This document shows, one piece after another, positions 1 through 27,762 of a stretch of 64,000 nucleotides of DNA. Within the stretch, counting starts at the first letter, position 1. Every line of letters begins with the position of its first letter. A program made the translations under genes and the position numbers. The notes below the pieces were generated by a model. That model worked only from the letters and a program-made list of their open reading frames with translations, had not been told where the DNA came from and made no database searches. The stretch is from an uncultured delta proteobacterium (lineage in GTDB: Bacteria > Desulfobacterota > Zymogenia > Zymogenales > Zymogenaceae), in assembly GCA_963735595.1 (NCBI GenBank), contig CAVTLK010000001.1, forward strand, positions 227,008-291,007, in the 5' to 3' direction.

Positions 1-1
1 T

Positions 2-196
2 TCTCTGTATATCGCATGCGGAATATCGGGCGCAATCCAGCACCTTGCCGGTATGGGCTCGTCTAAGTTCATCGTGGCCGTAAATAAGGACGCCGACGCT
101 CCCATATTTGCGCGGGCCGACTACGGCATTGTCGATGATCTCTTTAAGGTGGTCCCCGAGATCACCAAAGAGGTCAAGAAACTTTTGGCCGAATAA
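2..196 (+). CDS. etfA: Electron transfer flavoprotein alpha subunit (EtfA), C-terminal fragment; its start lies upstream of the window
   Basis: Frame-2 translation reads ...[62 protein letters not shown]. This matches the conserved ETF-alpha C-terminal FAD-binding motif ([29 protein letters not shown]). Stop is TAA at 194-196. Confidence 0.8.
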
Positions 197-199
197 CCG

Positions 200-229
200 A
201 AAGGGGGGGATTTTCCCCCCCCTTTTTTA
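200..229 (+). terminator. Rho-independent terminator after etfA (G7 / C8 stem followed by a T-run)
   Basis: aaGGGGGGGattttCCCCCCCCTTTTTTT, read directly from the sequence. Confidence 0.6.
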
Positions 230-314
230 TGTGAGTAGGATATGGACTATCAGATTTCACGCGAAGTGTTTTTTAACCTCGGCGGTCCCCACGGCGTGGT
301 GCGGCTGATCGTCT

Positions 315-2477
315 ATGCGATCGCGCTTCTCGTTATGGCGACGTTTATCTACTTGCTTGTCGAAGAAGATAAAGGTCTGGCGCCTGGGTCAAGCGGAAAT
401 GCGGACGGATAAGATAGTGACCCGGCTCTGGGGGATCGTACAGTTTGTCTTCCTCCAGGTAAAGATCCTCGGGGAGAAACTGCCCGGTATTACCCATTTC
501 TTCCTCTTCTGGGGTTTTGGGGTTCTCTTCGTCGGAACCGCCCTGATCGTTATACAGGAAGACTTTACGCTCCTCTTGTTTGACACCAGGTTCTGGTACG
601 GTACGTTCTATAAGTTTTATTCGTTGGCCCTGGACCTGTTTGGGCTTTTCGCCCTCATCGCAATTATCGTGTTTGCGGTGATTCGATATGTAGTCAGGCC
701 CAAGCGTCTGGATAACCAGGCGACCGACGCGATTTCCCTTGCCTTGATCTTCCTCATACTCGCTACCGGGTTCGTCAACGAGGGTCTCCGTATGGCGGCC
801 ACCGAAGTATCCACGAACCCAAAGGTTGCGGCTATGAGCGAGGTGCTGGCGGCGTCCGGTGACGAATTTCTCCGGGAAGCACCGGAGCTGACCGACGATC
901 AGCTCATTGAGAAGGCCAACAAGAACTCCGCCTTCAAGGATACCCCGGTCACCGAGGATAACGTCTATCTGGTTCGTAACGGCTACTACTATAACCCCGA
1001 GCTGGCGACGTGGTCTCCGGTTGGGTTGACGCTGGCAAACGTCTTCAACTCGACGATGAGTGAGGCCGGTATCCTGACCTTCCACAAGGTTAACTGGTGG
1101 GTGCATCTTCTTCTGGCGATGAGCTTCATCGTCTATCTCATGCTCGGCAAGCTCATGCACATCATCACGTCCAGCGTCAATGTCTTCTTCAGGAAGCTCG
1201 AGCCGAAGGGCGCGTTGAAGCCGATCGAAGACATGGAAAACGCGGAATGCTACGGGGTCGCGTACCCGGAGCAGTACACCTGGAAGCTCCTCATGGACGG
1301 GGATGCGTGCACTCGCTGCGGCCGCTGCCAGGACAACTGCCCCGCGTGGCTTTCCGACAAGCCGTTGTCGCCCAAGAAGATCGTCAACGACACCAACGAC
1401 AACCTTTACGAACGGGCGCCCCAGCTCTTCAAGAAAGTTCCGAGCGAAGAGGTCAAGTCCAAAGCCCTTATCGGTGAGGCGAATGAGCTGGACGCCGTTT
1501 GGTCGTGCACGACATGCCTAGCGTGCGTCGAAAACTGCCCCGTGGCGATAGACCAGGTGCAGAAGATCAACGAGATGCGGCGGTGCAAGGTCCTCATGGA
1601 AGGGGATATGACAAAGGAGCTGACGGCAGCCCTGCAGAACATGGAAAAGAATTCTAACCCCTACGGGTTTGGTTTCCATGAGCGGGGCAACTGGGCGGCC
1701 GATCTCCCGATAAAGACGCTGGCCGAGGACCCTGACGTCGAATACCTCTACTACGTGGGATGCGCCGGGTCATTTGACGACCGGTATAAGAAAGTGGCGA
1801 CGGCCTTCGTCAAGATCATGGAGCAGGCAGGGGTTAAGGTCGGCATGCTCGGCCAGGAAGAGGGATGCTGCGGTGACAGCGCCCGCAGGGCCGGAAACGA
1901 GTATCTCTTCGCGACGCTGGCGCAGGTTAACATCGAGACGTTCAAGAACTATAACGTCAAGAAGATCGTGACGACGTGTCCGCACGGGTATAATTGCCTG
2001 AAGAACGAATACCCGCAATTCGAGGGCGGAACGTTCGAAGTCTATCACTTCACGGAAGTGGTCCTCGATCTGATCAAACAGGGGCGCATCAAGCTCAATA
2101 AGCCCGTGGATGGGATCAGAGAGGTTGCGTATCACGATTCCTGCTTCCTGGGCCGATACAACGGGCTCTATGATCAGCCGAGACAGATCATCAAGTCGAT
2201 CCCTGAGATGAAGGTCGTGGAGTTTACGCGAAACAAGTCAAAGAGCTATTGCTGTGGGGCGGGAGGGGCCCGGATGTGGATGGAGGAAACCCTCGGCAAG
2301 CGCATAAACCATGTCAGGACTCAGGATGCGATAGACAAGGACTACAAAACGCTCAGCACTGCCTGCCCGTTCTGCCTGACGATGCTCTCGGACGGCATCA
2401 AGGAACTGGGTAAGGGAGAGTCGATGGAGACGTATGACGTCCTTGAACTGGTTATGAAATCCATGGATATAAAGTAA
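315..2477 (+). CDS. Membrane-anchored Fe-S oxidoreductase (HdrD/GlpC/DsrK-like, with a NarI-like polytopic N-terminus); the likely ETF-associated quinone-reducing partner
   Basis: 720 aa. The N-terminal ~300 aa are hydrophobic, with multiple predicted TM helices. There are two 4Fe-4S ferredoxin motifs (CTRCGRCQDNCP, CTTCLACVENCP) and two CCG cysteine-rich domains (EGCCGD; YCCGAGG...CPFC). It sits immediately downstream of etfA, as in the EtfAB-associated DUF224/HdrD-like oxidoreductases of syntrophs. The start is uncertain; M at ~399 is an alternative. Confidence 0.7.
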   Translation: MRSRFSLWRRLSTCLSKKIKVWRLGQAEMRTDKIVTRLWGIVQFVFLQVKILGEKLPGITHFFLFWGFGVLFVGTALIVIQEDFTLLLFDTRFWYGTFYKFYSLALDLFGLFALIAIIVFAVIRYVVRPKRLDNQATDAISLALIFLILATGFVNEGLRMAATEVSTNPKVAAMSEVLAASGDEFLREAPELTDDQLIEKANKNSAFKDTPVTEDNVYLVRNGYYYNPELATWSPVGLTLANVFNSTMSEAGILTFHKVNWWVHLLLAMSFIVYLMLGKLMHIITSSVNVFFRKLEPKGALKPIEDMENAECYGVAYPEQYTWKLLMDGDACTRCGRCQDNCPAWLSDKPLSPKKIVNDTNDNLYERAPQLFKKVPSEEVKSKALIGEANELDAVWSCTTCLACVENCPVAIDQVQKINEMRRCKVLMEGDMTKELTAALQNMEKNSNPYGFGFHERGNWAADLPIKTLAEDPDVEYLYYVGCAGSFDDRYKKVATAFVKIMEQAGVKVGMLGQEEGCCGDSARRAGNEYLFATLAQVNIETFKNYNVKKIVTTCPHGYNCLKNEYPQFEGGTFEVYHFTEVVLDLIKQGRIKLNKPVDGIREVAYHDSCFLGRYNGLYDQPRQIIKSIPEMKVVEFTRNKSKSYCCGAGGARMWMEETLGKRINHVRTQDAIDKDYKTLSTACPFCLTMLSDGIKELGKGESMETYDVLELVMKSMDIK

Positions 2478-2495
2478 CGGGATAGTCCCGTATGT

Positions 2496-2528
2496 TCAAT
2501 TGCGGCCTTCGGGAAACCGGGGGCCGTT
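2496..2528 (+). terminator. Putative intrinsic terminator after the Fe-S oxidoreductase (GC hairpin followed by T8)
   Basis: gcggccttcgggaaaccgggggccgTTTTTTTT. Confidence 0.45.
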
Positions 2529-2726
2529 TTTTTTACGCCGAGAGTACCCTCGCCGCTAACGTCGATAGGCCGTTTTATCCGAGGGGTATCTGTAAAACGC
2601 GAACGATTAGGCTCATCGGGCGCTCGGGAGAAAAAATCTGATGGACACGCCTTATTGTTGGCGATATAATGAAATATTACATATCAATAACCTCTTTTAT
2701 CCATAGACGAGCCTTCGGGGGTATGT

Positions 2727-4106
2727 ATGAAGAAAGAATATATCATGGCAATCGACCAGGGGACGACGGGAAGCCGGGTCTATATTTTCGATGATAAGGG
2801 CGACGTGGTGGGAAGCGCCTACAAGGAGTTTACCCAGATATATCCGAAACCGGGATGGGTGGAACATAACCCCCTGGAAATATATAAGAGTGTCCAGGAA
2901 ACGATGCTGGACTCGTGCGTCCGTGCCGAGATAGAGCTGGGTTCGGTCTTTGCTATCGGGATAACCAACCAGCGCGAAACGACGGTCCTCTGGGATAAAA
3001 AAACCGGTGAGCCGATCCACAACGCCATCGTCTGGCAATGCAGGCGTACGGCCGATATCTGCGACGACCTCAAGAAGAGGGGACATGAAGATCTCTTTAA
3101 GAAAAAGACCGGCCTGGTACTGGATGCCTACTTTTCGGGCACCAAGGTTAAGTGGATTCTCGATTACGTAAAGGGTGCAAGGGATCGGGCGCGCAAGGGT
3201 GAGATTCTGTTTGGAACCATCGACACATGGCTCATGTATAAACTTTCCGGCGGAATAATCCATGCCACCGATTTCACCAACGCCTCACGGACGCTCCTTT
3301 TCAACATCGAACAAAAGAAGTGGGATAGAGAGATTCTTGACATACTGGACATACCGGAGGAGATGCTGCCGGAGGTAAGGGATTCCGCCGGTCACTTCGG
3401 CAACACGGCATCACAACTCCCGATGGGCCGCGAGGTGCCGATCACCGGGGTGGCCGGAGACCAGCAGGCGGCACTCTTCGGGCAGGGATGCACGGCGCCG
3501 GGAACAGCAAAAAATACGTATGGTACGGGTTGCTTTCTCCTTTCGATCACGGACGGCTTGGTTCATTCCCATAACGGGCTCTTGACTACCATTGCCTGCT
3601 CGGAAACGGGGAAACCGGTATATGCCCTGGAGGGATCGGTCTTTATCGCCGGGGCAGTGGTGCAATGGCTCCGGGATGAGCTGGGCATGATTAAGAACTC
3701 TGCGGAGACGGAGGAACTGGCCCGCAAGGTGGAAGATACCAACGGCGTCTATATCGTTCCCGCCTTCGTGGGCCTTGGAGCCCCTTATTGGGATATGCAC
3801 GCCCGCGGCGGCATATTAGGGATTACCCGCGGGGCAAACAGGGCTCATATCGTAAGGGCGGCGTTGGAGTCGATTGCCTACCAGGCCAGGGATCTGGTTG
3901 AGGTAGTCAATGCAGAAAGCGGTAAGAAACTCTCGACACTTATGGTTGACGGTGGCGCCGCGAAGAATGACTTCCTCATGCAGTTTCAGGCCGATATGCT
4001 GGGCATTCCCGTCGATCGTCCGAAGATGACCGAGACGACGGCGGCGGGGGCGGCATTTCTTGCGGGTCTCGGGTCAAACTTCTGGGGATCGGCCCAGCGA
4101 GCTTAA
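2727..4106 (+). CDS. glpK: Glycerol kinase (FGGY family). The conserved last ~35 aa are encoded in another frame, so the full gene would run to the stop at 4213-4215.
   Basis: Reads [16 protein letters not shown]...GWVEHNP...[11 protein letters not shown]..., canonical GlpK over 459 aa. After the stop at 4104-4106, the +1 frame reads ...[39 protein letters not shown], which matches the GlpK C-terminus (compare E. coli ...DELQEKAVIEREFRP...YAGWKKAVKRA). The shift falls near the GGGG run at ~4088. Confidence 0.85.
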
Positions 4107-4318
4107 AAAATGCCGTAAGGTTGAAACGATCTTCAAACCCCGTATGGATAAAGGCAAACGGGACCTGCTCTATTCGGGATGGAAAGAAGCGGTTAAGAGG
4201 GTAAGCACCCGATAGGATGTGATTACCTGTTGGAAATTAACCGGGCACCTGGGCGCTGAAGGGCTGCCGCGCGCGTCACCCTTTTAGGCGCCGGCAGGAC
4301 GGGAGCAAGAGGAGACTA

Positions 4319-5527
4319 ATGGATTTTCATACCGAAGCGCTCGTCGTGGGAGGAGGCGCAACCGGCGCCGGCATCGCCCGTGACCTCGTCATGCGAGGCA
4401 TCGAGACGATCCTCATCGAGAAGGGGGACCTTGCGGCCGGCGCGACGGGCCGTTGCCATGGCCTCCTCCATTCGGGGGGGCGGTACGCGGTCAAGGATCA
4501 GGAATCGGCCCTCGAGTGTATCGCCGAGAATATGATCGTCAAGCAAATTGCCTCAAAGGCCGTCGAGGACACCGGCGGCCTTTTCGTGGGGATGTCCGAA
4601 GACGACGAGTCTTATGTGGATCGCTTTGTCTCGGCCTGTTATCGAGTCGGGATTGAGACCGTCAATCTCACCCCGTCACAGGCCAAGCGGATGGAGCCTA
4701 ATCTTTCGGATGATGCTACCGTCATTATTCGAGTTCCCGATGCGGCAGTGGACCCGTTCATGCTCACCGTGATGAACGTGGGTGATGCCGAGAAGCGGGG
4801 CGCCAGGATACTTCGCCATACCGAGCTTACCTGTATCATCGTCGAGCGTGGACGCGTTACGGCGGCGCTCGTGCGTGACAATCTGAGCGGGCAGACTCAT
4901 CGGATACGAACCCGGTACATCGTAAACGCGACCGGGGCATGGGCGGCACGGGTCGCGCGGCTTGCGGGGGCGAAAATAAACATGACGCTGTCAAAAGGCA
5001 GCCTTCTGGTCTTTAACCGAAGAATAAATAACTGCGTCATCAATCGCCTGCGTCCGCCGGGGGATGGGGATATAATCGTCCCCAATGAACCTACTTCCAT
5101 TATCGGCACGACATCGATTACGGTAAAAGACCCGGAGGACTTCCGTGTGACGGACGATGAAGTCGAGCTGATGATGCGTCAGGCGGGCCTCATGCTCCCG
5201 GAATCGGCCGAGGCCCGGGTGATCAGGGCTTACGCGGGAATACGCCCCCTGGCGGCGCCGGAGACGGGTTCCGGCCGCGACGTTTCGCGGACCTTTACGA
5301 TCATCGACCACAAGAAAACGAGCGACACGTCGGGTTTTCTCTCGATCATCGGAGGGAAGCTCACGACGTACCGGCTCATGGCGGAAAAAATCACCGACAT
5401 TATCGCAGGCGATCTCGGCGTGTCTATCCCGTGTAAAACCGCGTCGACGCCGATCCTGGGGACCGAGCGGCATGAGCACTACAGCCTCGAAGACAGGTTC
5501 AAGTCAATTGAGATCGTTCAAGGATGA
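4319..5527 (+). CDS. glpA: Anaerobic glycerol-3-phosphate dehydrogenase subunit A (FAD-dependent catalytic part)
   Basis: Reads MDFHTEALVVGGGATGAGIARDLVMRGIETILIEKGDLAAGATGRCHGLLHSGGRYA... (dinucleotide-binding fold). An SD (GGAG) precedes the ATG. The ORF stops at 5527 in an ATGA overlap with the next ORF. Confidence 0.85.
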   Translation: MDFHTEALVVGGGATGAGIARDLVMRGIETILIEKGDLAAGATGRCHGLLHSGGRYAVKDQESALECIAENMIVKQIASKAVEDTGGLFVGMSEDDESYVDRFVSACYRVGIETVNLTPSQAKRMEPNLSDDATVIIRVPDAAVDPFMLTVMNVGDAEKRGARILRHTELTCIIVERGRVTAALVRDNLSGQTHRIRTRYIVNATGAWAARVARLAGAKINMTLSKGSLLVFNRRINNCVINRLRPPGDGDIIVPNEPTSIIGTTSITVKDPEDFRVTDDEVELMMRQAGLMLPESAEARVIRAYAGIRPLAAPETGSGRDVSRTFTIIDHKKTSDTSGFLSIIGGKLTTYRLMAEKITDIIAGDLGVSIPCKTASTPILGTERHEHYSLEDRFKSIEIVQG

Positions 5528-5907
5528 CAAACCCTCCGGGAGTCGAAGAGATCGTCTGCGAGTGTGAGCTGGTCAGCAAGCGTGAGATCGTCTCGGTTGT
5601 CAAGGATACCGGCACGAAAGATCTCAATGATATCCGCGTGCGGACGCGGGTGGGGATGGGATCGTGTCAGGGTGGATTCTGCACCTATCGCCTGCTTGGG
5701 ATACTGCACGAATTACAGATGGTTCCCGATTACGAGGCAAATGAGATACTGATCGATTTTCTCGAAGGACGGTGGAAAGGGATCAAGCCGATCCTCTGGG
5801 GAGACCAGCTCCGGGAAGAACAGCTCATTGAAGGCATATATATGGGGATTTTCGCCCTCGATAAGGCGGCGATGCGTTCGGTGGCCAAGAAGGGGAGGTT
5901 GAAATGA
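5524..5907 (+). CDS. glpA: BFD-like [2Fe-2S]-binding domain, normally the C-terminus of GlpA. Here it is a separate ORF overlapping glpA by ATGA (a genuine split gene or a frameshift).
   Basis: Reads EEIVCECELVSKREIVSVV...GMGSCQGGFCTYRLLGIL, the BFD-like 2Fe-2S motif (C-x-C ... C-x2-C). It lies in a different frame from the 4319 ORF. Confidence 0.7.
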   Translation: MTNPPGVEEIVCECELVSKREIVSVVKDTGTKDLNDIRVRTRVGMGSCQGGFCTYRLLGILHELQMVPDYEANEILIDFLEGRWKGIKPILWGDQLREEQLIEGIYMGIFALDKAAMRSVAKKGRLK

Positions 5908-7157
5908 ACTACGATGTCGTAGTTATCGGGGCGGGTCTGTCCGGACTCATGGCGGCGGAGGCGGCGGCACAGCAGAAAAAGAGGGTGCTCGTCGTCTCTC
6001 GGGGTATGGGCATCATCACGATTTTCACCGGGACCATCGACGTTTTCGGGTATTGGCCGATCGACGAGGCGCGGCCCCTGGCTTCCCCGCTCGCGGGAAT
6101 CCAGCGGCTGATTCGTAAAGACGCGGAGCACCCGTATACTAAAATGGGTATTGATTCTATACGAAAAGGGATCGCGGCCTTTATCCAGACCGCCGGGAAA
6201 GGCGGCGTCCAGTACGTCGGCGATCTTTCCGAGAACATCCTTATCCCCACGGCGGTGGGAACGGTAAAGCCCACGTGCCTGGTTTCGTCCAGTATGGCCG
6301 GCGGCGACATGAAGAATGAACGCAACGTGTTGATTTGCGGCTTTTCGGGCCTCAGGGATTTCTATCCGGACTACATGGCCCATAACATATCGACGTTCGA
6401 GATGGAAGGGCTGACGCTCCCGCGGTTTCGCGCGCGGACCTGACGGTCGACATGGGCGACCGGACGTCGGGTCTCAACTGCCTGACGCTGGCCGGAAGGC
6501 TCGAGGATCAACGGCTGCTCAGGGCAATGACCGAGGAGGTCTATAGTCACGTCGAACAGGGAGAACGGGTAGCCTTTCCGGCGGTTCTCGGTATCAGGAA
6601 CAGCCGGGATATCCATAAAAGGTGGAACAGGCATGCGGCGTCCCCATATTCGAGACGCCGACGCTGCCGCCGTCGGTTCCGGGATACCGGCTGTATAAGT
6701 CACTCGAGGATACCCTCAGGGCAATGGGAGTCCACATGCTCGTCGGGTACGACGTCTACAACCCGAAGACATTCGGAAGGAGAATCGGCGAGATCAGTAT
6801 CGCGATGGGTAAGAGCGAGAAACGGGTTTCGGGACGCGCCTTTATCCTGGCAACGGGAGGGCTTGGTCGGCAAGGGAATCACCGGATCGTATGACAGCGC
6901 TCAAGGAGTCCGATTTTCGAACTTGCCGGTGGCGGCCCCGAAAAAGAGAACGGACTGGTTCAGAAAGAGACTATTTGATCCGGCGGGCCATCCGATCAAA
7001 CAGGGCGGGGATCGTCGTCGACGACCATCTGCGCCCGGTCGACAAAAAAGGAGAGCCGGTCTATGATAACCTGCTGGTGTGCGGAACCCAGCTCTTTGGC
7101 TTTGACGCCCTGAGGGAGAAATCGGGAGGGCGGAGTGGCCGTTTCATCGGGATATAA
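5904..7157 (+). pseudogene. glpB: Anaerobic glycerol-3-phosphate dehydrogenase subunit B, split over three frames (5904-6443, 6622-6894, 6891-7157)
   Basis: N-terminus MNYDVVVIGAGLSGLMAAEAAAQQKKRVLVVS (FAD fold) with SD GGGAGG. The middle piece PIFETPTLPPSVPGYRL...ATGGLGRQG and the C-terminal piece ...LLVCGTQLFGFDALREKSGG continue the GlpB family in frames 1 and 0. At least two frameshifts. Confidence 0.7.
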
Positions 7158-7186
7158 GGCGGGCGTCGAGGCGTCGAGGATGTAAC

Positions 7187-8407
7187 ATGGCTGTTATAAG
7201 ACGAGATATACACTATCCGGCCGATCAGTGCATAAATGTACGATTTGCGTTGAGCACTGCCCGGTGGTTAAGGTTACCGATAAATTCCTGGGCCCAAAAC
7301 AGGTCGGCCCCGATTTCCAGCGTTTCCGCAGTGAACAGGACGATACCCGCACGACGTATCGGTGGACTATTGCACCGGCTGCCGTATCTGCGACGTGGTC
7401 TGCCCGTCCGGGGTCAATATCTCGGAGCTCAACATACGGTCAAAGATAGCCGTCAGGGAAAAGGAAGGGATTCCGATTCGGGATACGCTGCTGTCTCACG
7501 CCTATATGTTCGGCCAGATCGCCAGCTTTACGGCGCCGGCGGCCAACGCCTTCCTGAAATTCCGTCCCTTCCGCTGGCTTTCGGACAAGATGCTGCACCT
7601 CGAAAAGAGCCTTCGCTATCCGTTCTATCAGCGCGAATCGTTCGAGAAAGTGGATCAGGGGCTATACGTTTAAGTCAGAGCGGAAGGTGGCCTATTTCTA
7701 CGGTTGTTTTACCAACTATAACGATCCGTCTGTCGGAAAGGCGGTCGTCAGGGTACTGGAAAAGAACGGTATTCAGACCGTTTTCCCGCGCAGGAATGCT
7801 GCGGGCTTCCGCTGCTGGGCAACGGAAACGTGCGGGAGGCGCGCAAACTGGCCCGCAGAAACCTGGCCGGACTCATGTCCGCGCTTGACGAGGGCCTCGA
7901 TATCATATACAGCTCCACGTCCTGCGGTATGATGATCCGGGACGACTATATCACGTATCTTGACCTGTACGAGGCCGAGCCGCTGTTTGACCGAATGAAA
8001 GAGGTCTCGGAGTACCTCTGGGAGCTTCACGAAAAGGGGGGGCTTAATACCGATTTCGAGGAGGTCCCGATGACAATGTCCTATCACATTCCGTGTCATT
8101 TGAGGTCTTTGGGCATCGGATTTCCGGCAATCGACCTGATGAACCTGATTCCGGGTCTTACCGTCAGGGAACTGGGAAGCTACTGCTGCGGGATGGCGGG
8201 GACCTACGGATTCAAGAGCGACAAGTACGAGATCACGAGGGCGATCGGGCAGGACCTCGCAAGGCGCTGGCCGAGACCGATGGCGAGTACGCCGCGTCGG
8301 ACTGCGAGGCCTGCCGGATGCAGATAGAAAATATGTCGGCCAAGAAGGCCATCCACCCCATCAAGACGCTCCTCTGGGCTTACGGGATTGAGCCTGTGGG
8401 GGTATAG
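7187..8407 (+). pseudogene. glpC: Anaerobic glycerol-3-phosphate dehydrogenase subunit C (Fe-S/CCG subunit), fragmented over at least five frame switches
   Basis: Pieces are: MAVIRRDIHYPADQCI (frame of 7187), then KCTICVEHCPVVKV (7228 frame), CTGCRICDVVCPSGV (7362), AYFYGCFTNYNDPSVGKAV (7687), SYHIPCHLRSLG...SYCCGMAGTYGF (7830), and CEACRMQIENMSAKKAIHPIKTLL (8093). Joined, they reproduce GlpC architecture (2x 4Fe-4S + 2x CCG). One shift sits in the A-run at ~7232-7236. Confidence 0.7.
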
Positions 8408-8439
8408 GCCGATGGGCTTGCCGAAAACGGGCCGAGGAC

Positions 8440-9236
8440 ATGGGGAACGCGCGCCCCATAGTGCATACGATCAGGCTCGGACTCCTCTTTCCCCTCTTTC
8501 CCGTGAATATCTATCTAATCGACGGGGACAACCCGACCCTCATAGACACCGGGCTCGATACCGACGTGGCGTGGCAGGGATTGGTTAGCGGGCTCTCGGC
8601 CGTCGGGCGAAGTCCGGGGGATATCAAACGGGTCGTCCTCACCCACGGCCACATCGACCACGTCGGGCTGTGCCCGAGGCTGCTCATGGAAGGGTCCCCC
8701 GAGATCATGATCCATGCGCGGGACGCCGGGCGCATTCGTTCGGACGTGGAGCACCTGGTCGGTCTCGTCGAGAAAAACGCCGCCAGGTTCAAGAAGATGG
8801 GTATCCCTGCCAGGGACATAGATCGGCTCTTCAGGAGCTATGTATCCGTGCTCAGACGATTTCACGTGGGACCGTTCCCGATAACGGAGCTTACCGACGG
8901 AGACCGTGATAGAGTGCGGGGACGCTGAACTCGCGGTGATTCATACACCGGGGCATACCGTCGGGGAGCGCCTGCTTTTTCCTGGATGCTATCCATACCC
9001 TCTTTTCGGGTGATCACGTCATGGAGGGTACATCGACCAACCCGCTGGCGGAGATGATCCCGGAAGAGGGGGTTGGCCTCATTCCGTATCTCGAATCGTT
9101 GAAAAAGGTCGATGACATCGGGGCGGAAACGATCCTGCCGGGCCACGGCGCCGTGATCAAACGTCCGGAGAAGTACATCTCGCAGATAGCGCTCCATCAC
9201 GATACGACGGCCCGGCGGATCAGGCAAATCGCTTGA
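8440..9236 (+). CDS. MBL-fold metallo-hydrolase with two apparent frameshifts (near 8900 and 8975)
   Basis: Reads LTHGHIDHVG (HxHxDH motif). After 8928 the frame moves to IECGDAELAVIHTPGHTVGERLLF, then to LDAIHTLFSGDHVMEGTSTNP...LPGHGAVI (ORF 9021-9236). Confidence 0.6.
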
Positions 9237-9479
9237 CACCGGGAGCATGACGCCGGCAGGGCTTGCCGGGACGGCTCTTTCCCGAACTCAAAGGAATTGC
9301 CGGAGGGAGCGCCGTGTTCGAGGTCTTTTGTCATCTCATGGAGCTTGTTGGGCGAGATGAGGCCGTTATGGAGGAACGGGAAGGCCTCTTCTCTTTCAGA
9401 CGGGATCGGTAAGCATAGATTATACCGGAAGTATGTGCCGCGCGGGGGATATGGGATCGCAATCGGCGACAAGAAACCG

Positions 9480-10568
9480 TCACGACCCCGCGGCGTCCAA
9501 ACGCATCCGCACCCCCATCCCCGGCCCCTCGGGGACGGGAATAACCCTTCGTTCAAAATCGACGGTAAAACCGTCGGCTATGTCGTGCTTCAAAAAGGCC
9601 GGGCCGATCGCCTCGCAGGCTATGATCCCCGGCTTTGCTGCGACAAGCTGCATCCCAGCGGCGCTGCCCAGCGACGATTCGAGCATCGACCCAACGATGG
9701 TGGGAATCCCGGCCGCCTCGGCAATCGCGTAGATCTTCGTGGCCCGCAGGAGCCCCCCGGATTTCATCAGCTTGATGTTGATAATATCGGCGGCCTTATT
9801 CGAAACGACCGCCAGCGCGTCCTCGGGGGAGAGGCACCCCTCGTCCACCATGATCGGGAAAGGGGAATGCCTTTTTACCTCGGCCAGGGCCGGCATGTCG
9901 CCCGCGGTCGTGGGTTGCTCGACCCACCGGACGGGATAGGCCCGGAGGCGCTCGAGGGCCGCCATGGCCGTCGGCGCGTCTTTCCATCCCTGGTTCACGT
10001 CCAGGAGGAGCCTCGCGCCGGGGGCCGCCGCCGAGATCAGGCGCACGCGGTCACAGTCCTGGTCGGGATTGCGTGCCTATCTTTACCTTGATGTCCCGAA
10101 AGCCGCCCCGGAAAAAACCTTCGGCATATCCGGCCATGACCTCGGGATCGTCCAGCGGGATCACCGGGTAAAACGCGATGGCCGACCTGCTCATCCCACC
10201 GAGAAGGCGATACGCGGGTACGCCGAGCGATTTTGCCCATCAGGTCAAAGAGCGCCATATCGAGCGCCGCCCACGCCGTCGGTGAGGCGGGGGCGGCCTT
10301 CTCGGCGAGTGCCATTATCGCCTCGATGTCAAAGGGGTCTCTGCCCGAGGAGGTCCGCCGGATATGGCGGAAAGGGCCGTCTTTACGTCCTGACGCGTTT
10401 CCCCGGTCACGTCGAAATCGACGGCACCCTCGCCGTATCCGATCGTCCCGTCATCCGTCGTCAGGGTCAGCAGGACGTAGTCAAGTGTTTCGAACGTCCC
10501 GTAGGAAACAACGAGCGGGACTACCGGGACGAGGTCAAGATCATCGACGTGTACCGACGCGATTTTCA
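9480..10568 (-). CDS. Enolase-superfamily enzyme (mandelate racemase/muconate lactonizing enzyme family; L-Ala-D/L-Glu epimerase or OSBS-like), frameshifted into three pieces
   Basis: N-terminus MKIASVHVDDLDLVPVVPLVVSYGTFETL (start 10568). Middle piece AWAALDMALFDLMGK. C-terminal barrel piece LLLDVNQGW...KLMKSGG...EQP (metal-binding DxN.W, K.K catalytic dyad). Confidence 0.6.
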
Positions 10569-10569
10569 T

Positions 10570-11754
10570 GAGGATGGTTTTACCTTTCCTGAATATCGCC
10601 GGTATCATCGGAAGGACGGCAAGGTTGATCAGCGCAAGGATCACAAACGTCCACCGGAATCCGACGTTGTCCACCAGAACTCCCGCCAGCGACTGTCCCA
10701 CGGCGATGCCGAGATTGCCTATGGCCATGAAGACCGCAAACATGGTTGCGGCAATCCGCGGGTTCGAAAAATCCATGCTCAGGGCGAAATAGACGGTTTC
10801 GTAATAGCCGAAGCCCATTCCGAACAAGAAGAGGAGCACGTAGGCCGTGTTCAGGTGATGGGCGCCGGCGATCGGAAGAATGGTCGCGGTTGAGATAAGC
10901 CAGCGCGATAACGAGGGAGTAGCGTGTGCCCGAGCCTATCGATGAACGCGCCGCCGAGTGCTGCGCCCGCTCCCGTCCCGATTCCGAAGAGGGCGGTCAC
11001 AAATCCTACGTTGAGCATCGAGATATCCGAGTCCCTCCTTAAGGAAGGGATTGGCGATACCCTCGACGTTATAGATGACCAGGGGATAGAGAAAGCCGAC
11101 CAGCATGAAGAAGAAGACGGGAAGGGATGCAAACGACTTGAACGCGGAAAACGAGAAGCTCACTTCGTCTTTTCGCGGCACCTCCGGTGGAACGAAGAAA
11201 TAGTAGATAACCGGGAGAATGGTAATGGCGCCGATGCCGAAGAAGACCGGCCGCCATCCGTAGTACTCGGTAACGTATCCGATCGACGCCGCCGCCAGCA
11301 CCATTCCAACGGCCCTGCCGCCCACCATGATTCCCTGAACGAATCCCCGTTTGTCTTTAGGAGTCCTGTCCAGGGCGTATCCGTCGGTTGCGGTATCAAA
11401 CGTGGCCATGCCGAGGGGAGCAAGGAAGAGGACCGCCGTAAACAGGACGGGGGTCTTAACGGGGGACAAGAACGGGACAAGGCATATGATAGTTCCCTCA
11501 AGAAGCAGGCCGACAATGATGAGGGGCTTTCGATAGCCCAGACCGAAGGGATTGACCGAATCGGAGAAGAGCCCGATAAAGACCTTGATGATCAGCGGGA
11601 TGAGCGCGATGGAACTGATAAGGCCGATCGTCGTGAAAGAAAGATCGAAGGTTCTCAGATAAATGATATTGAATCCGGTAAAATAGGTAATGAGGATACC
11701 CTCGAGGAAATAGATGAGCGAGTAGAATCCGCCGAGAAGATATTTATGTTCCAT
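10570..11754 (-). CDS. MFS transporter, frameshifted (pieces 11754-10936, 11132-10851, 10839-~10570)
   Basis: Twelve-TM-like hydrophobic profile. Reads GYRKPLIIVGLL..., DRTPKDKRGFVQG, then the C-terminal TMs. The 3' end runs into the epimerase start with no in-frame stop, which implies a shifted true stop. SD AAGGAG precedes the ATG at 11754. Confidence 0.55.
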
Positions 11755-11909
11755 GGTCTAACTCCTTGGTGAGAGATGAAAGCCGGGGGAAACCGTTATG
11801 AATGGGATTCCCCCGGCTCACTCGTGAAACACATAGGCAGGCCGTCCCGGGCAATTTATCTGCCGGGCAGGCCCGCGCACGGACGTGCCTTACCGGCACG
11901 TACACTCCT

Positions 11910-12625
11910 CTATTTCTTCTTAAGCCACATCTCCCAGAGGGGCACGAAGAAGAAGAAGAGGAAAGCGATACCGAGGAGCGCACCGCCGACTACGGAGAAA
12001 TAGGCAAAGGCCGCCGCAGTCTTGGCAAGCCACCACGAAAAGACGTCCATCACGATACCGGCATAGGCCGTGAGAACGAGCAGGATCTTCCAGCGGTCTT
12101 TGACGGTGGTCGCGATAAAGATCAGAGACAGGAGAAAGAACATCACCCCATGGGAGATGAGATGGGTATGAGAGAGGGTGCCGAGACGGCCGGGGGAAAC
12201 GCCGGTTGAAACCGCAACGTATTTCATGACTTCGTCATAGGTCGTCAACGGGGAACCGGACTCGGTGCCGTCTTTTGAGTGGCACATGGTGCAGCTTTTC
12301 TTCAATATCGGGACGACGGTCTCTTCGTACGACGTCTCTTCGGCACCGGCCCGATCCACTCTATAACGGCGTTCTTATCGCCGTCCGACGAGAAATAGGT
12401 CGCCATAGACCCGAGGCTCTTGTCCTCGAGGGCGGTTCCCTCGCGGTTGCCGTAGTAGGTGATGACGATATCGTTCATCGAGAGGCCCGGTTTGGCATCG
12501 GCATTTTCGTGGCAGATGTAAATGGTAAACAGGGCAAAGATATAACCGAGCCCCATTACGCAGAGGAAAACGGTAATCAGCAGCTTTGCCGGAATTCCAA
12601 GCTTAACAAGTCCTTTTTCAAACAT
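11910..12625 (-). CDS. Membrane protein with a single CXXCH heme-c motif plus a His-rich 3-TM C-terminus, with a frameshift near 12300-12360
   Basis: N-terminal piece MFEKGLVKLGIPAKLLITVFLCVMGLGYIFALF... (TM1). Second piece ...ILKKSCTMCHSKDG... followed by TM helices carrying SHTHLISHG. Neither piece is an independent ORF. Confidence 0.45.
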
Positions 12626-12723
12626 GGTGTGTCCTTTCCTCCAAGAGAGTGAAGTTCGGAGTGAGGGTATCCTGTTCTGCGGTAGATCAAAAGGAGATAC
12701 GGCGGCGGCCGATCAAGGCCCGA

Positions 12724-12970
12724 TTAACCGCCGCCGATAATCTGAAGAATCCTGATTTCGTCGCCGTCCGATCAGCACGTGGTCAGGCGTCACCCGGGAA
12801 CCGTTTATCATCGCGACAAACGGCATGCCCGCCCGGATGACTCCGGATTCCTTGAGGGCCTTTTTGAGTCTGGCGCCCTCATTAAGGTTATAGGTTCCGC
12901 CCCTGATGCGGGCCGCCAACGGGCCGTACGGTTTAACGGTTACGGTGATCTTTTTTCTCGAAAACAGCAT
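12724..12970 (-). CDS. ThiS/MoaD-family sulfur-carrier protein; the C-terminal GGG tail is recovered only after a 1-nt frame correction
   Basis: Reads ITVTVKPYGPLAARIRGGTYNLNEGARLKKALKESGV...VAMINGSRVTPDHVLIG. Shifted by one, the tail reads DGDEIRILQIIGGG* (TAA at 12724-12726), the canonical beta-grasp carrier ending in Gly-Gly. Confidence 0.6.
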
Positions 12971-13027
12971 GTCGGAAATCCGATAGAGATGATGAATAGG
13001 GTATTGCCGTACTAATTGACCGTGCCG

Positions 13028-13426
13028 CTATTTTATTGTGGGCCATACTCCCCTTGTGCCGGAGAACGTTGCGCCGGAGATCGCGGTTCCATAGCCGAAG
13101 GTGCCGACGAACGAGTCGCCCGCCTCATTCAGGGTGACAATACCACGGCCCGAGCCGAGTGGGCCCTCCCAGTCAAATTCGAATTTCGATCCCCTGACGG
13201 CTCCCCGGATCGTACGAAACTTCAGGGGAGAGGGGAAGGTTCCGGAGGCGTAACATTCATTCTGGGTGATCTCAACGGGACCGGCATCGGTGTTCCAGGT
13301 TCCAACGAAGCTCGCGCAGAGTGTCTTAGGCGGGACGCTCGGCGGCACCCGGACGCAGCCGGCGACTGCAATAATCGAAAGACCGACTATGATTGCCACG
13401 ACAAGAACTCTTGAGTAGCTTTTCAT
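13028..13426 (-). CDS. Hypothetical lipoprotein
   Basis: Signal peptide plus lipobox (MKSYSRVLVVAIIVGLSIIAVAGC). Intact ORF with no recognisable family. Confidence 0.5.
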   Translation of the reverse strand: MKSYSRVLVVAIIVGLSIIAVAGCVRVPPSVPPKTLCASFVGTWNTDAGPVEITQNECYASGTFPSPLKFRTIRGAVRGSKFEFDWEGPLGSGRGIVTLNEAGDSFVGTFGYGTAISGATFSGTRGVWPTIK

Positions 13427-13536
13427 CTGTTGCCTCCTGTTACATCCATAGATGTCGCTACTATACCACATCCGTATCTACCGTGCAACGGCTTCGGAGA
13501 CATCCGGCCGTTTCGGGATCGGGGACGGCCGTCCAA

Positions 13537-15748
13537 TTATGGTTTGAGCGTTTTGTACACGAAGCTCTCCCATCGGCGTATATCCGAAGTATAGTAGGGT
13601 GAGTAACGGCGGTCCGAGGGACCGCCGGCAATGTCCGTGTGAATTGCCGTTTCGCCGAGGTCGGCAATTATCCGATACGACGGGGCGAAGCTCGTCAATC
13701 TACCTCCGGTCCTGAATATCTGCCCCTGGACGATGGTGGCCCGGTTGCCGGGAAGTTCGACGGGACCGAAATCAAAGCCAAGTATACGGGGGAGCTTACC
13801 GCCGAAGAAGAGGTTTGCCATGAGTACCTTATGAGTCCTGCCATACGCAACGGCCGGTCCCTTCAGGCCGCGGTGGATTGCCTTCTGGTACAGCTCCTGG
13901 CGGTTCTTATCTCCAAACCAGAGCGATTTCTTGGCCAGCAGGATGCGGTCAAAATTAATATAGAAGTCGTTGAAAAGCCCCGTCTCGGCGAGACAATAGT
14001 CGATAACGTCCCTGCCCATTTCGAGCTCGCCGAAGACGAGATCGAGGAGCGACGTATATACCCGTTCGAACAGGGTAGCTCCCAGCGACTCGGTGTCGTA
14101 ACAAAGGTCCCAGTCACGCAGGATTTTCCCGTTGGGTGTGTCGGGCAGGAGCGGCTCGATAATCTTCATGAAGTATTGAGCCTGGAGGGAATAGAGGTCG
14201 CTACTGGATCTTCTTCATCTCCTCCACGTCCAGCGGTGTCCGCTTTTTCAGGAGGTCTCTTATCCGGTCGCCGCGATAGCTTCCCATCGGAAGGTTCTGA
14301 ACGACAACCTTGGAAAGGTGTGAGAGATCTTCGTTGGCAGTGGCTACGTAACCCTCGGGAGGATTATAGCTCCGCGGGTAGCTCGTCGGCGGAACTGATG
14401 CCCTTCCACTGGTGAGACGGATCCCAGCCGAGGTAGGGCAGTAGACCCGAAGTACCTTTTTTCCGCTTCGGGAAGTTCCCGCTCATCTGATAGCCGATGT
14501 TACCGGCGGTATCGGCGGCAACCCAGTTGAAGGCCGCAAAGCTCAGACCCGCAAAACGGCTCATCGCTTCCTTGACGTTCTTTGACCTGGGGACTTTGAG
14601 GATACTTTCCATAGACTGTGCGACGTTTCCGCGACGGCCCGACCAGGCAAACGAGAGCCAGTAGCCGTCGGCGGTCGGTTCTCCCTCGAGTACCCCATTA
14701 TCGCTCTCGTAAAATCGCAGGGTGATAGGCGCCTTCTTCTTGGGCCGGATGACCTCCTCGCGAACGGCAAAGGGGACCCGCTTCTTACCGCGCAGGCATT
14801 TCTTGTTTACGACATCCTCGATAAAATAGTCGATCGTATCCATAAAACCGTACGTGACCGACCACGCCAGGGTTATTGGAGCGGCCAAGGACAACCGCCG
14901 GTATGCCGGGGAAGGTCGCCCCCATAACGTAAAAGTCTCCCGATACCAGTACGGCCTCGTACCATAACGGCGGGCAGGCGGTTGACTTCGAGGTGCGGGT
15001 CGCCGCAGAGGATAGGCTTCTTTGACCTGGAGCGTGCGCCGGACACGGCCCAGTTATTACTGGCCGAAAATCGGGTAAGGACCGATAGCCATTTGACGGA
15101 CTCGGGCACCACGGGATTGACAAGGTTGACCTGCTTAATGATTTCGGTGAGGGACTCTTTCGGGCGTTCCATCGAGGGGAACAGCTCCTTGAGCTTTTCT
15201 ACCGACACCCCCTTTCGGATCATCTGGATGATACCCTTTTCCATTTCTCCCTGGGATTGGGTAAGGCCGATAAATCCGATAATCCTGGACATGAGGACGA
15301 TATCCTCCGGCGTCCACGGGTCGGGCTTGTACCCAACCAGTTTGAACTCGAAGGGCACGCCCGAATCGGCGATTGCCTTGTTTGCGCCGGCGCAGTAGGC
15401 GCTCAGGACGGCCAGTGTCTCCTTGTTCATCTTCTTTAATTCTTGTTTGGCGTCACCGCCGAGGGAAATCCATCTCATATACGTATCGGCGGCGATCAGC
15501 TCTTCGTCGGCCTTTAGCTTTTCGGAGGCCCGCCCCTGGCCGATGAGCTTTACGAGCCACATCGCAAGCTGCCGGTCGGTTCCATGCATATAGCCCAGCC
15601 CCCAGTAGAGGTCGATCTCGTGATCGGCACTGATATGGGGCACTCCGCCGGCGATACGCTTGATGGTGACGTTCCCCTTGGTTCCGCGAAGAACCGTCTC
15701 GACATCAGTTATCTTCATGATTACTCCAACTATGGATAATATAGACAT
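13537..15748 (-). pseudogene. Penicillin amidase / acyl-homoserine-lactone acylase family Ntn hydrolase (~735 aa), fragmented by at least three frameshifts
   Basis: Alpha-subunit piece 15748-14873 (...HEIDLYWGLGYMHGTDRQLAMW...). Beta-subunit nucleophile SNNWAVSG. Further family pieces are at 15123-14785 (GDFYVMGATFPGIPAVVLGRSNNPGV), 14894-14364 and 14169-13537. Confidence 0.65.
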
Positions 15749-15942
15749 TATGTACCATTACGGGAATCGTATTTCAAGAGATTAAATAGGATTTCTGTAA
15801 ATACGCGCAGCATTCATACGCGTAAAACGGTCGGCGGTTCCTCCGTCAGTATCTCTTCTCAAATAAAGTTCAGGCGCAAGAATCGGATAGTCAGAATGGC
15901 CGCTCCCATATAGTATATAATAAAACTGTTGAGGTATGAGCT

Positions 15943-21600: not shown

Positions 21601-21751
21601 CCTTTTCAGACAGATTCTCAAAAATATCGTCGAAGACCGCCGCGTCCATGGAATCGTTAAGAAACACGAATGGCGCAGCGGAAAAGTCCCTCGGCGATCC
21701 GGCGAAGGCCTGATAGAGTGTCTGAATCCTATTTCGTTTTCGTTGTAGCAT
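18605..21751 (-). CDS. Large (1048 aa) hypothetical protein, possibly glycoside-hydrolase-like (C-terminal galactose-binding-like / GH2-sugar-binding-type jelly roll). Function unknown.
   Basis: Single intact ORF. The C-terminus ...VVLNGHDMGARLWPPYRYDVTDALSSGENEIEISVTN resembles carbohydrate-binding jelly-roll domains. No catalytic motif recognised by eye. Confidence 0.4.
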   Translation of the reverse strand: MLQRKRNRIQTLYQAFAGSPRDFSAAPFVFLNDSMDAAVFDDIFENLSEKGFTKVVLSPRSGLSVPWASEEYWRRLSEIVGRAKARSMRVWICVDYQQPIGPPHVPPSAERPGFCAQGIVFRTAKRPDSSRQVIGTYLTSGRSVTHLPEHPPGKKCLIASVDVLYPPTPIDPDALSVPHGGMGRLDILNSDAVRYYVNTVLEPLRKILKKYFENTIEGILIQSPQNQCPFPWTGSLPDIFKKKFGYDLLGRLPSLISEVGDFVSVRTDYYCLISDLTRDFYHAVGTWARQHNLLFSATIGREGFIETLPHSQGDPYAALSEMSVPATSYRCTGKHYLSDTPPLLMSNFTPKFVSSVSRIGKDDRTLAAVWEGEGWGVTPQLLKRTIDCGVSLGITSFFTHGVFASIVGLRKRDFPPSVYFQLPYWSDAPILADYISRTCLMMSAGHSKADALVLFPRSSLFVNTIGLGRLTSEGNKIIAGLTDLIGRLLSDHRDFDFLYEEALERGLVRCKDGVISIGPNRYSTLIVPRATYMPASTLAFTENAKRNGVNVIFVGEYPAVINKQQTATLGIGITLVKDAADLIHYLRLNIPKQLYILGDNSDKFLHQRRTFHDADIYFFSYLGEERFTGTLALTGTGAPEAWDPEDGRRYGVPEFQVIQRGVCFPVTFEPGRSWIYVIHSERTDALHGLSTPQEHRIGEFFFPERWEIDYRSDNMLRIDNFRLIRSVPPVALPPLNRLTGDDRFSLFTKIIIASVRVLTESIGRVWGIRKKIGYRSFTSMEREMRFYSSAARLARLTVPGQTHYRKVDLIRDAARYMGLFFSTPLPPVGSEFEIEANFIVGTIPRRIFLVWEDTGQPTEIFVNGVLVSNRAQGCFVWDRQNKRASLSDIVRWGTNRIGIRSRQPGFPTVIPAIHCIEPIVLAGDFDVNLDIITARKETTRHLSWGTNATGNYSGTIAYRTRFRLPKRFTGKVSILELGDVRVACRVVLNGHDMGARLWPPYRYDVTDALSSGENEIEISVTNTTENILGKPMLSGIVTDPKIVFYNPQ

Positions 21752-21825
21752 AATAGGTGTCGGTACGATAGCCGGGACGGCTCGGCCATCGGCGCGCTTC
21801 CCGATAGAACAGACGCCGACGGTAT

Positions 21826-23727: not shown

Positions 23728-23773
23728 GCCGATCCCTTAGGAAGATGAAAAACGTTACCTGTTCCTATCTTTG

Positions 23774-25156: not shown

Positions 25157-25393
25157 GTGTTATTTGCGCGTCAGATGATAGCACAACTGCCGGACGTTTC
25201 AAGGAAATAAAATCCAAGGAGATGACATGCCGGAATTATATTTTTGAAGTTGCCGGTATCATTTTACTTGACACAAAAAACCGGGTATGGTATTTTGTCC
25301 CTTCTTGAATGAGTATTCATTCATTGTATATGGAGTGACGTTATCGCGATAGAATAGTGTAGCAATATCATAGCATTATGAGGACGGCACAGA

Positions 25394-25708
25394 GTGGTTA
25401 AGGCAATTGTCGAAAAAATTAAGAACGCCGAGGTGAAAGCCGACAAGCTCGTAAAAGAGGCGGAGGCCAAGGCGGAACAAAACGTCGTTAAGTTCACCCG
25501 TGACAGGGAGAAACGCCTGGAGGCAGTCGAAAAGGAAAACAGGGAAATCAGGGGTAAGGCTCTCGAAGAGGCGGAAGCGCAGGCAAAGAAAGAAGAAGCA
25601 CGGATACTTGACGACGCCCGGAAAGAGATGAACGCTTTGCGGGCGGCGGCCGACAAAAAGAAGGAAGAAGCCGTTTTATTAATCATACGGAAGATATTAG
25701 AGCAGTGA
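25394..25708 (+). CDS. atpH: V/A-type ATPase subunit H (small coiled-coil peripheral stalk-associated subunit)
   Basis: 104-aa Lys/Glu/Ala-rich coiled coil, the first gene of the V-ATPase operon. GTG start. Confidence 0.6.
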   Translation: MVKAIVEKIKNAEVKADKLVKEAEAKAEQNVVKFTRDREKRLEAVEKENREIRGKALEEAEAQAKKEEARILDDARKEMNALRAAADKKKEEAVLLIIRKILEQ

Positions 25709-27699: not shown

Positions 27700-27762
27700 A
27701 GACGGTACGGTTAGCAGTGTACGTAATCCTGTACGGGTGTATCAAACTTTGTGGAGTGTGCC

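Follow-up and report, generated by a model that had tools for sequence, protein, structure and literature searches.

A stretch of 64,000 nucleotides from contig CAVTLK010000001.1, referred to here as the window, opens with two neighboring catabolic units that are most likely transcribed separately and belong to an uncultured, Syntrophales-like bacterium of the "Deltaproteobacteria"; the frameshifts found in them are most likely assembly errors. The first unit starts upstream of the window and ends in a gene for an electron transfer flavoprotein (ETF):(methyl)menaquinone oxidoreductase (EMO, also named EtfD) at positions 242 to 2477 of the forward strand. The second unit, glpK-glpA-glpB-glpC followed by the gene of a metallo-hydrolase of the metallo-β-lactamase (MBL) fold, begins at position 2727 of the same strand. 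An earlier description of these genes, drawn up from the letters of the window without database searches (the sequence-only reading), agrees with the raw sequence in gene content and position. Three points were corrected: the start of the EMO gene, the broken state of the glp reading frames, and the degree of homology between GlpC and EMO, which is distant.

Assignment of the oxidoreductase gene to the EMO/EtfD family

The window begins within etfA, of which the last 64 codons and the stop are present (2 to 196, forward strand, frame 2; Pfam ETF_alpha). The encoded C-terminus was 97% identical to residues 261 to 324 of the 324-residue EtfA of the relatives L162 and L165. The EMO gene starts 45 nt after the end of etfA, at position 242 (MDYQISREVFFNLGGPHG...), with AGGA located 5 nt upstream; this start was placed by comparing DNA and protein with L162, L165 and L001, the last of which is 88% identical. 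Its reading frame is not intact in the raw sequence. An extra base near 361 moves the gene from frame 2 to frame 3 and cuts its first 40 codons off from the remainder, and the open reading frame (ORF) of 720 residues seen in the raw sequence (315 to 2477) is the frame-3 part. Removal of one base gives an ORF of 744 residues. Likewise, the closest relatives of the 720-residue protein are intact and 743 to 754 residues long. The 720-residue ORF itself was not found in the protein collection searched.

Profile searches with the protein detected the CCG domain (Pfam PF02754) in two stretches, with 122 bits against a cut-off of 20.6, and Fer4_8, Fer4_9 and Fer4_10 all above their Pfam cut-offs. The 720-residue reading has two CxxCxxCxxxC motifs (residues 332 and 398) and two CCG motifs (residues 518 and 646). 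Among models resembling heterodisulfide reductase (Hdr), the strongest NCBIfam match was to TfrB (152 bits, far under the cut-off of 385). The NarI family (Pfam PF02665) was recorded for many homologues and was below significance on the window protein. Therefore, membership of the transmembrane (TM) domain rests on the alignment, the conserved histidine residues and the fold match. A hydropathy scan of the truncated 720-residue reading found four hydrophobic regions within the N-terminal ~300 residues; most of TM I is missing from that reading, as its codons precede position 361 and are in frame 2. In an AlphaFold2 model of the 88%-identical homologue P0003 (mean pLDDT, 75; pTM, 0.66), helices were predicted at residues 19 to 46, 79 to 113, 121 to 151, 159 to 186 and 274 to 301, along with connecting helices after TM I and TM IV, a pattern that matches the published EMO topology.

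When the PDB was searched with phmmer, the corrected protein matched 9ojn_A, listed as an "iron-sulfur-binding reductase," with an E value of 9.5e-112, in three stretches that lie between query residues 19 and 742 and jointly take in most of the protein. The P0003 model was aligned to the same structure by Foldseek with a TM-score of 0.78 over 779 columns (E = 3e-32), and HdrB subunits ranked next. Residues H85, H288, H306 and E180 were invariant in an alignment of 16 diverse EMO homologues. The three histidines align to the heme ligands H87, H233 and H251 of the Syntrophus aciditrophicus enzyme (SaEMO), and E180 aligns to its calcium ligand, E187. As domains, helices, ligand residues and a full-length match are all present, the window protein is clearly a member of the EMO/EtfD family at the sequence level. 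The sequence-only reading had described the 720-residue protein as an EtfAB-associated membrane oxidoreductase with a polytopic N-terminal half and an Fe-S/CCG C-terminal half. This description is borne out by the five-helix domain, the Fer4 and paired CCG matches, the upstream EtfA and the match to 9OJN, and the family concerned is one that has been characterized, in both biochemistry and structure, as EMO/EtfD (bioRxiv 10.64898/2026.08.18.745454; PDB 9OJN).

Comparison with characterized enzymes

SaEMO is an ETF:methylmenaquinone oxidoreductase whose structure was determined by cryo-electron microscopy (bioRxiv 10.64898/2026.08.18.745454), following earlier work on the enzyme (PMC8805022). 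Its five TM helices are NarI-like, its N-terminus is periplasmic, and TM I and TM IV are followed by short connecting helices (bioRxiv 10.64898/2026.08.18.745454). H87 and H251 are the ligands of heme bP, H233 is a ligand (heme bD1) in a stacked distal "twin heme," and the propionates bear a Ca ion that is held by E187; two cubane clusters are bound in an HdrC-like domain, and electrons from ETF enter at an HdrB-like noncubane cluster (CCG) domain (bioRxiv 10.64898/2026.08.18.745454).

Like SaEMO, the window EMO joins three domains in one chain, namely a NarI-like heme-b domain of five helices, an HdrC-like two-cubane domain and an HdrB-like CCG domain. Both proteins have the three heme-ligand histidines and the Ca-ligand glutamate, and both are encoded directly downstream of etfBA inside a β-oxidation gene set. 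Identity to the homologue from an S. aciditrophicus metagenome-assembled genome (MAG; L023) was ~37% in the TM domain and 52% in the cytoplasmic part, and the heme- and Ca-ligand residues of the two proteins correspond residue for residue. However, the window EMO carries an insertion of ~66 residues after TM IV that SaEMO lacks, and the Syntrophus protein has a long insertion in its linker that is missing from the window EMO. The proposed quinone-protonating residues of SaEMO, E22 and H109, align with R and D, and, in contrast to SaEMO, the window EMO adjoins a glp operon.

Among solved structures, the best match by both sequence and fold was Mycobacterium smegmatis EtfD (MsEMO; PDB 9OJN), which shares the three-domain architecture and the role of ETF acceptor and is ~30% identical to the window EMO. 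MsEMO is a protein of 1042 residues with extra regions, only one heme b and a [3Fe-4S] distal cluster (bioRxiv 10.64898/2026.08.18.745454). In sequence, the TM domain of the window EMO is nearer the tri-heme, HdrE-like type than is that of MsEMO. The closest non-EMO relative of the family is HdrDE (bioRxiv 10.64898/2026.08.18.745454), which in Methanosarcina likewise joins an HdrD with two [4Fe-4S] and two CCG motifs to a five-helix heme-b HdrE. In contrast to HdrDE, the window EMO fuses both parts in one chain, and its gene accompanies those of ETF rather than genes of methanogenesis.

The insertion comprises residues ~186 to 256 of the window EMO (797 to 1009, forward strand; alignment columns 207 to 275) and starts five residues past the Ca-ligand glutamate, after TM IV and ahead of the connecting helix that follows it. 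It was present in all members of the clade described below and absent from every other aligned EMO homologue. The AlphaFold2 model of P0003 predicts four or five short helices at residues 193 to 255, forming a small helical bundle (block-mean pLDDT, ~73 to 88). If the published topology of SaEMO applies, the insertion probably faces the periplasm, near the distal heme/quinone region.

The glp genes

All genes of the second unit are on the forward strand. Glycerol kinase is encoded at 2727 to 4215 and has 495 residues once an extra base at ~4098 is removed. In spite of the last ~38 residues being out of frame, it scored 685 bits with TIGR01311 (cut-off, 590), and both the N- and C-terminal FGGY domains were found. 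The glpA gene (4319 to 5907; TIGR03377) encodes, in its corrected 528-residue form, an FAD-dependent DAO domain with a BFD [2Fe-2S] domain fused to its C-terminal side. The raw sequence instead shows two ORFs, one of 402 residues for DAO (4319 to 5527) and one of 127 residues for BFD (5524 to 5907); scored with TIGR03377 in this split form, the N-terminal piece reached 522.5 bits and the C-terminal piece 124.9 bits (cut-off, 552.8). GlpB models matched residues 1 to 165 of the first fragment (5904 to 6443) of glpB, which extends from 5904 to 7185 and encodes 425 residues after seven small indels are corrected. The corrected GlpB was 92% identical to P0241, an intact protein named glycerol-3-phosphate (G3P) dehydrogenase subunit B by JGI. 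For GlpC, PRK11168 matched three fragments between 7362 and 8407, over profile positions 58 to 399. The corrected glpC (7187 to 8407; five indels) encodes ~407 residues that contain two 4Fe-4S and two CCG motifs but lack a TM domain. The pieces of GlpA, GlpB and GlpC remained under whole-protein cut-offs because the genes are broken. Judged from sequence, GlpABC appears complete and canonical, and the placement of glpK and a three-subunit GlpABC downstream of the 720-residue ORF in the sequence-only reading agrees with the NCBIfam matches to glpK from 2727 and to GlpA, GlpB and GlpC over 4319 to 8407.

The last gene of the unit in relatives encodes the MBL-fold metallo-hydrolase (8440 to 9412; Pfam Lactamase_B; at least four indels in the window), and in L162, L165, L169, L170 and L171 it is located within a few bases of glpC or overlaps it. 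In L169, the MBL gene is followed by a gene for an alpha/beta-fold hydrolase of the PcaD/BioH-like esterase family (13688 to 14452), which fits a theme of ester or lipid hydrolysis and has no counterpart at that position in the window. The window genes resemble the Escherichia coli type in the score of GlpK above the equivalog cut-off and in the order glpA-glpB-glpC, with genes overlapping or abutting. They differ in that glpK heads the same unit, in the conserved MBL-fold hydrolase after glpC, and in the assembly indels that they carry. GlpC and the C-terminal half of EMO were 23% identical over 367 residues (E = 9e-10). The homology that the sequence-only reading had drawn between them thus stands, as a relationship of distant paralogues and not as close kinship.

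Conservation of the EMO-glp neighborhood

The order etfB-etfA-EMO-glpK-glpA-glpB-glpC-MBL was found in nine other independent assemblies, all from one uncultured "Deltaproteobacteria" clade, with EMO proteins 74 to 90% identical. These are the JGI samples 3300075153, 3300063113, 3300056905, 3300042731, 3300037424, 3300037484 and 3300057056, together with GCA_016931225.1 (L169) and ENA ERZ25039545 (L171). The full order TetR-3-hydroxyacyl-CoA dehydrogenase/enoyl-CoA hydratase (HCDH/ECH)-acyl-CoA dehydrogenase (ACAD)-EtfB-EtfA-EMO-GlpK-GlpA-GlpB-GlpC-MBL was scored as far as each contig covers. Every clade contig that reaches past EMO has the EMO-glp order, and three further contigs stop at EMO. 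In L169, the order is kept with EMO 75% and GlpB 53% identical to those of the window.

Upstream of EMO, those relatives whose contigs extend far enough carry a FadR-like TetR gene, whose best match was the Bacillus-type FadR (189.5 bits), followed by genes for a 658-residue HCDH/ECH and a 382-residue ACAD, both matched by the corresponding models (FadJ/FadB and ACAD), and then etfB and etfA. The order ACAD-EtfB-EtfA-EMO was present in all clade contigs extending that far. The sequence-only reading had taken the window to open inside an etf operon; in the relatives, etfB and an acyl-CoA dehydrogenase gene are indeed found just upstream, preceded by the FadB/J-like and FadR genes.

More distant loci gave a different picture. 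Full-length EMO homologues 34 to 56% identical to the window protein were compared at 80 loci from GTDB genomes and 80 from metagenomes, each taken with flanks of up to 10 kb. A scan of metagenome contigs with P0003 yielded only 34- to 54%-identical homologues among the matches listed, and these served as extra negative controls. No glpK, glpA, glpB or glpC gene was found in these flanks at any of the 160 distant EMO loci listed, whereas EtfA or EtfB was found in the flanks of 58 of them. A strict count of EtfA directly upstream (26 of 117 distant loci) is an underestimate, because the C-terminal high-scoring segment pair was used to set the EMO start, and the looser count of 58 of 160 is preferred. 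Linkage of etfBA and EMO is the textbook context of this family. Adjacency of EMO and glp genes is a trait of one lineage and not of the EMO family, so that the recurrence of glpKABC beside EMO homologues, which the sequence-only reading had raised, holds within the clade and fails across the family. A literature search for a link between EMO and glp genes found nothing relevant.

The glp genes also occur by themselves. In L170 (GCA_964542895.1), a 56%-identical GlpB is encoded inside a glpK-ABC-MBL operon with no etf or EMO gene nearby. As this operon stands without EMO and includes the MBL gene, that gene is part of the glp unit, which is a module in its own right.

Transcription units

The spacer between the EMO stop at 2477 and the glpK start at 2727 contains an 11-bp stem with 8 GC pairs followed by T8 (2502 to 2535, forward strand; -21.6 kcal/mol, z = -3.0), corresponding to a predicted intrinsic terminator 3' of the EMO gene, and a putative sigma-70-like promoter of the glp operon, TGGACA-17-TATAAT (2642 to 2670, forward strand), with 11 of 12 consensus matches. 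The hairpin and T-run were kept in all six relatives aligned over this spacer, with a different stem sequence in L169. Of the seven sequences in the alignment, six keep the -10 box, which reads TAAAAT in L171, and the close relatives keep the -35 box. Together with a conserved block, GAAATATTACGTAT, downstream of the -10 box, these boxes are the sole other conserved islands in a diverged spacer. Right after the glpK -10 box, at 2671 to 2690, all close relatives have ATGAAATATTACGTAT, a candidate operator for a glycerol-responsive regulator. Because a terminator and a promoter-like site are both conserved between EMO and glpK, the two genes are probably in separate transcription units.

A second GC-rich hairpin, terminator- or attenuator-like, is located in the etfA/EMO spacer (199 to 228, forward strand; G7...C8 with a U6 run; -21.2 kcal/mol, z = -3.1), and a matching G-run/C-run hairpin sequence is found at the same place in L001 and L162. 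This hairpin may tune the ratio of EtfAB to EMO, either as an attenuator inside the unit or through transcript processing or stability.

Proposed function and the question of coupling

The first unit would comprise the FadR-type TetR regulator, the FadB/J-like HCDH/ECH, a short-chain ACAD, EtfB, EtfA and EMO. In the proposed scheme, ACAD would oxidize acyl-CoA and reduce EtfAB, and ETF would then dock on the CCG domain of EMO. Electrons would pass from this cytoplasmic HdrB-like domain through two cubane 4Fe-4S clusters, and thus by way of four Fe-S clusters in all, to the heme b groups of the five-helix NarI-like domain, where (methyl)menaquinone would be reduced near the periplasmic face; with quinone reduction located there, the proton motive force could pull the uphill step. 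In the second unit, probably transcribed from its own promoter, glycerol would be phosphorylated and G3P oxidized to dihydroxyacetone phosphate, with electrons flowing from the GlpAB flavins to a heme-less, membrane-peripheral, HdrD-like GlpC and on to menaquinone. We infer the direction and energetics of electron flow from the published work on SaEMO and from standard redox potentials.

The locus is most likely a lipid/acylglycerol catabolic neighborhood with its fatty acid and glycerol halves in separate units, which is the simplest reading of the FadR-type regulator and of the alpha/beta hydrolase gene of L169. As GlpC and the cytoplasmic half of EMO are paralogous, the locus would set two versions of one Fe-S module side by side for different thermodynamic tasks.

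The sequence-only reading had gone further and suggested a shared or alternative quinone-linked electron route for glycerol and ETF-dependent substrates. This suggestion is not upheld: GlpABC has a GlpC of its own, the units are probably separate, and nothing supports more than that EMO and GlpABC both feed the menaquinone pool, with no shared route at the protein level. A functional coupling of the two that would explain the gene linkage, for example through electron transfer from GlpAB/GlpC to the heme-b domain of EMO, is unlikely. It would fit the adjacency in ten independent assemblies, including the window, across EMO identities of 74 to 90% and GlpB identities down to 53%, the paralogy of GlpC and the cytoplasmic half of EMO, the lack of a membrane domain in GlpC, and the unique, predicted periplasmic insertion of the EMO clade. 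However, a conserved predicted terminator and promoter part the two units, GlpABC appears complete and canonical, the related operon of L170 stands alone, and glp genes were near none of the 160 other EMO loci listed. Furthermore, electron transfer from G3P to menaquinone is exergonic by standard redox potentials, and a transmembrane heme wire coupled to the proton motive force is not needed. ETF, for its part, has been described as the specific donor of EMO, docking on the CCG domain (bioRxiv 10.64898/2026.08.18.745454).

Frameshifts and consensus quality

Indels were listed from a multiple DNA alignment with four intact relatives, L162, L165 and L167 from JGI and L169 from NCBI, taken as short-read assemblies. 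EMO (~361) and glpK (~4098) have one indel each, and glpA has two, both 1-bp insertions (~5520 and 5535 to 5541). Seven are located in glpB (~6438, 6618, 6863, 6908, 6920, 7000 and 7127), five in glpC (~7233, 7343, 7650, 7790 and 8266), and at least four in the MBL gene downstream of 8440. Their size was always 1 to 2 bp, and 12 of the 16 in EMO, glpK, glpA, glpB and glpC were insertions. A homopolymer cause was rejected, as a run of four or more identical bases was found at only 1 of the 17 indel positions checked. The corrected ORFs of 744, 495, 528, 425 and ~407 residues have the lengths seen in relatives, with zero internal stops over ~2,600 codons. Compared with L165, the corrected GlpB was 84% identical with a nonsynonymous fraction of 0.32, as against 86% and 0.28 for the intact GlpB of L167; for GlpC, the values were 93% and 0.16, as against 94% and 0.15. 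Nucleotide identity in the indel-rich stretch was no lower than elsewhere.

A codon-usage Viterbi analysis of the whole window found fast frame switching, on both strands, only in the region of ~5.5 to 15.7 kb, with ~20 same-strand switches within ~5500 to 15750, and long single-frame blocks elsewhere. Three reverse-strand genes are also broken in this zone: an MR_MLE gene (9510 to 10506), an MFS transporter gene (10579 to 11757) and a penicillin-amidase-like gene (~12351 to 15733). All three, and the MBL gene, are intact in L171. In the clean part of the window, the V-ATPase A subunit was 100% identical to a database protein. A FecR-domain ORF (52388 to 53794) overlaps the ORF at 53307 to 54167, with a frame switch near 53627, and may be a lone frameshift outside the noisy zone.

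The four reference relatives had no isolated indels; their differences were confined to the ends of genes and to the MBL region, where the alignment is poor. L171 (contig_146054 of ENA ERZ25039545; 166 kb, with a Flye-style name) has three 1-bp insertions at positions unlike those of the window. Within its positions 6553 to 11011, glpK is split into 192 and 321 residues, glpA into 414 and 129, and glpB into 53 and 336. Small indels, the lack of nonsense codons and of relaxed selection, positions that vary across long-read-type assemblies, and spread over unrelated genes favor consensus error over decay. The indels are thus very probably consensus errors of a long-read assembly.

Every relative without frame-breaking indels has a single GlpA of 525 to 534 residues in which DAO and Fer2_BFD are fused, and removal of the two 1-bp insertions from the window gene gives a fused protein of 528 residues. 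If the indels are consensus errors, the split between GlpA and BFD is therefore an artifact. The sequence-only reading had allowed for either a real split or a frameshift; the ATGA overlap at 5524 to 5527 is real in the raw sequence, and the frameshift is the right choice of the two.

It is decidedly improbable that the frameshifts are real and that the glp operon and its MBL, MR_MLE, MFS and penicillin-amidase-like neighbors form a decaying pseudogene block with a truly split GlpA/BFD. At least 30 frame breaks are packed into 5.5 to 15.7 kb of a window that is mostly clean, the related L171 is likewise broken in glpK, glpA and glpB, and long homopolymers host few of the indels, all of which would fit decay. 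However, the indels are uniformly small and biased toward insertion, no nonsense codon was found among the ~2,600 corrected codons, amino acid identity and nonsynonymous fraction match those of intact relatives with no substitution excess, and the corrected GlpB shares 92% identity with an intact protein. In addition, the indels of the window and of L171 differ in position, and the reference relatives show none. Decay of bacterial genes tends to produce larger deletions. Pseudogene decay was rejected on these codon-level statistics (no stops, a normal nonsynonymous fraction and no extra substitutions). A GlpA that is naturally two polypeptides, DAO and a separate BFD ferredoxin-like subunit translationally coupled via the ATGA overlap, is extremely unlikely and was rejected, since the 414- and 129-residue ORFs of L171 that would suggest it arise from another insertion (window-equivalent position 5336), the window departs from the fused form by its two 1-bp insertions, and every JGI or NCBI relative free of frame-breaking indels has the fused protein.

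Several points weigh against the reading of two separately transcribed units with artifactual frameshifts. The adjacency of EMO and glp genes has held down to 53% GlpB identity in L169, and this retention might be due to selection for linkage and not simply to descent. The terminator and promoter are matches to consensus, and read-through from EMO into glpK is possible. The verdict of artifact is inferential; it is odd that the indels should cluster in ~10 kb of an otherwise clean 64-kb window and a second assembly, L171, is also broken in glpK, glpA and glpB, so that a biological cause, such as a recent loss of glycerol use, retains a small probability.

Other features of the window

A V/A-type ATPase operon (subunit I, C/AC39, A, B and others) is located at 25394 to 34650. 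On the reverse strand, 18605 to 25159 encodes in a row a GH106-like glycoside hydrolase of 1085 residues, a Castor/Pollux-RCK ion channel protein of 636 residues and an MFS_2 sugar transporter; the ORFs of the first two overlap by 37 nt (21826 to 21862). Two tandem paralogues of UDP-glucose/GDP-mannose dehydrogenase (449 and 457 residues) are encoded at 47589 to 50354. The named relatives were MAGs labeled "Deltaproteobacteria," "Syntrophobacterales" and "Thermodesulfobacteriota." No tRNA genes were found by a tRNA scan of the whole 64-kb window, and no Rfam family reached its gathering score in positions 1 to 64000.

Implications

The ~10 kb of poor consensus (5.5 to 15.7 kb) would mislead gene-level readings of that region, and the fragmented glpB and glpC genes and the split between GlpA and BFD should not be counted as biology. 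The two units could conceivably be a coselected respiratory island for acylglycerol degradation, in which exergonic G3P and endergonic acyl-CoA flows are balanced at a common, possibly insertion-modified quinone site. We regard this as very doubtful; if true, such coupling at the level of the quinone would ease the energetic burden of syntrophic β-oxidation.

Both the EMO/EtfD and the GlpKABC families are already known. The window contributes one more member, from an uncultured clade, together with an EMO-glp synteny restricted to one lineage and an insertion that is peculiar to the clade and probably periplasmic; neither the synteny nor the insertion alters the current view of the EMO family. 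For the 720-residue protein, the name EMO/EtfD can be used with confidence, and structures and a mechanism are available for this enzyme. The clade keeps a FadR-controlled β-oxidation/ETF/EMO operon beside a glpK/GlpABC/MBL operon, which suggests a specialist in the degradation of glycerides or phospholipids. Such an organism would deliver electrons from both halves of its substrate to menaquinone through paralogous HdrD-like modules, one coupled to the proton motive force by transmembrane hemes and the other peripheral.

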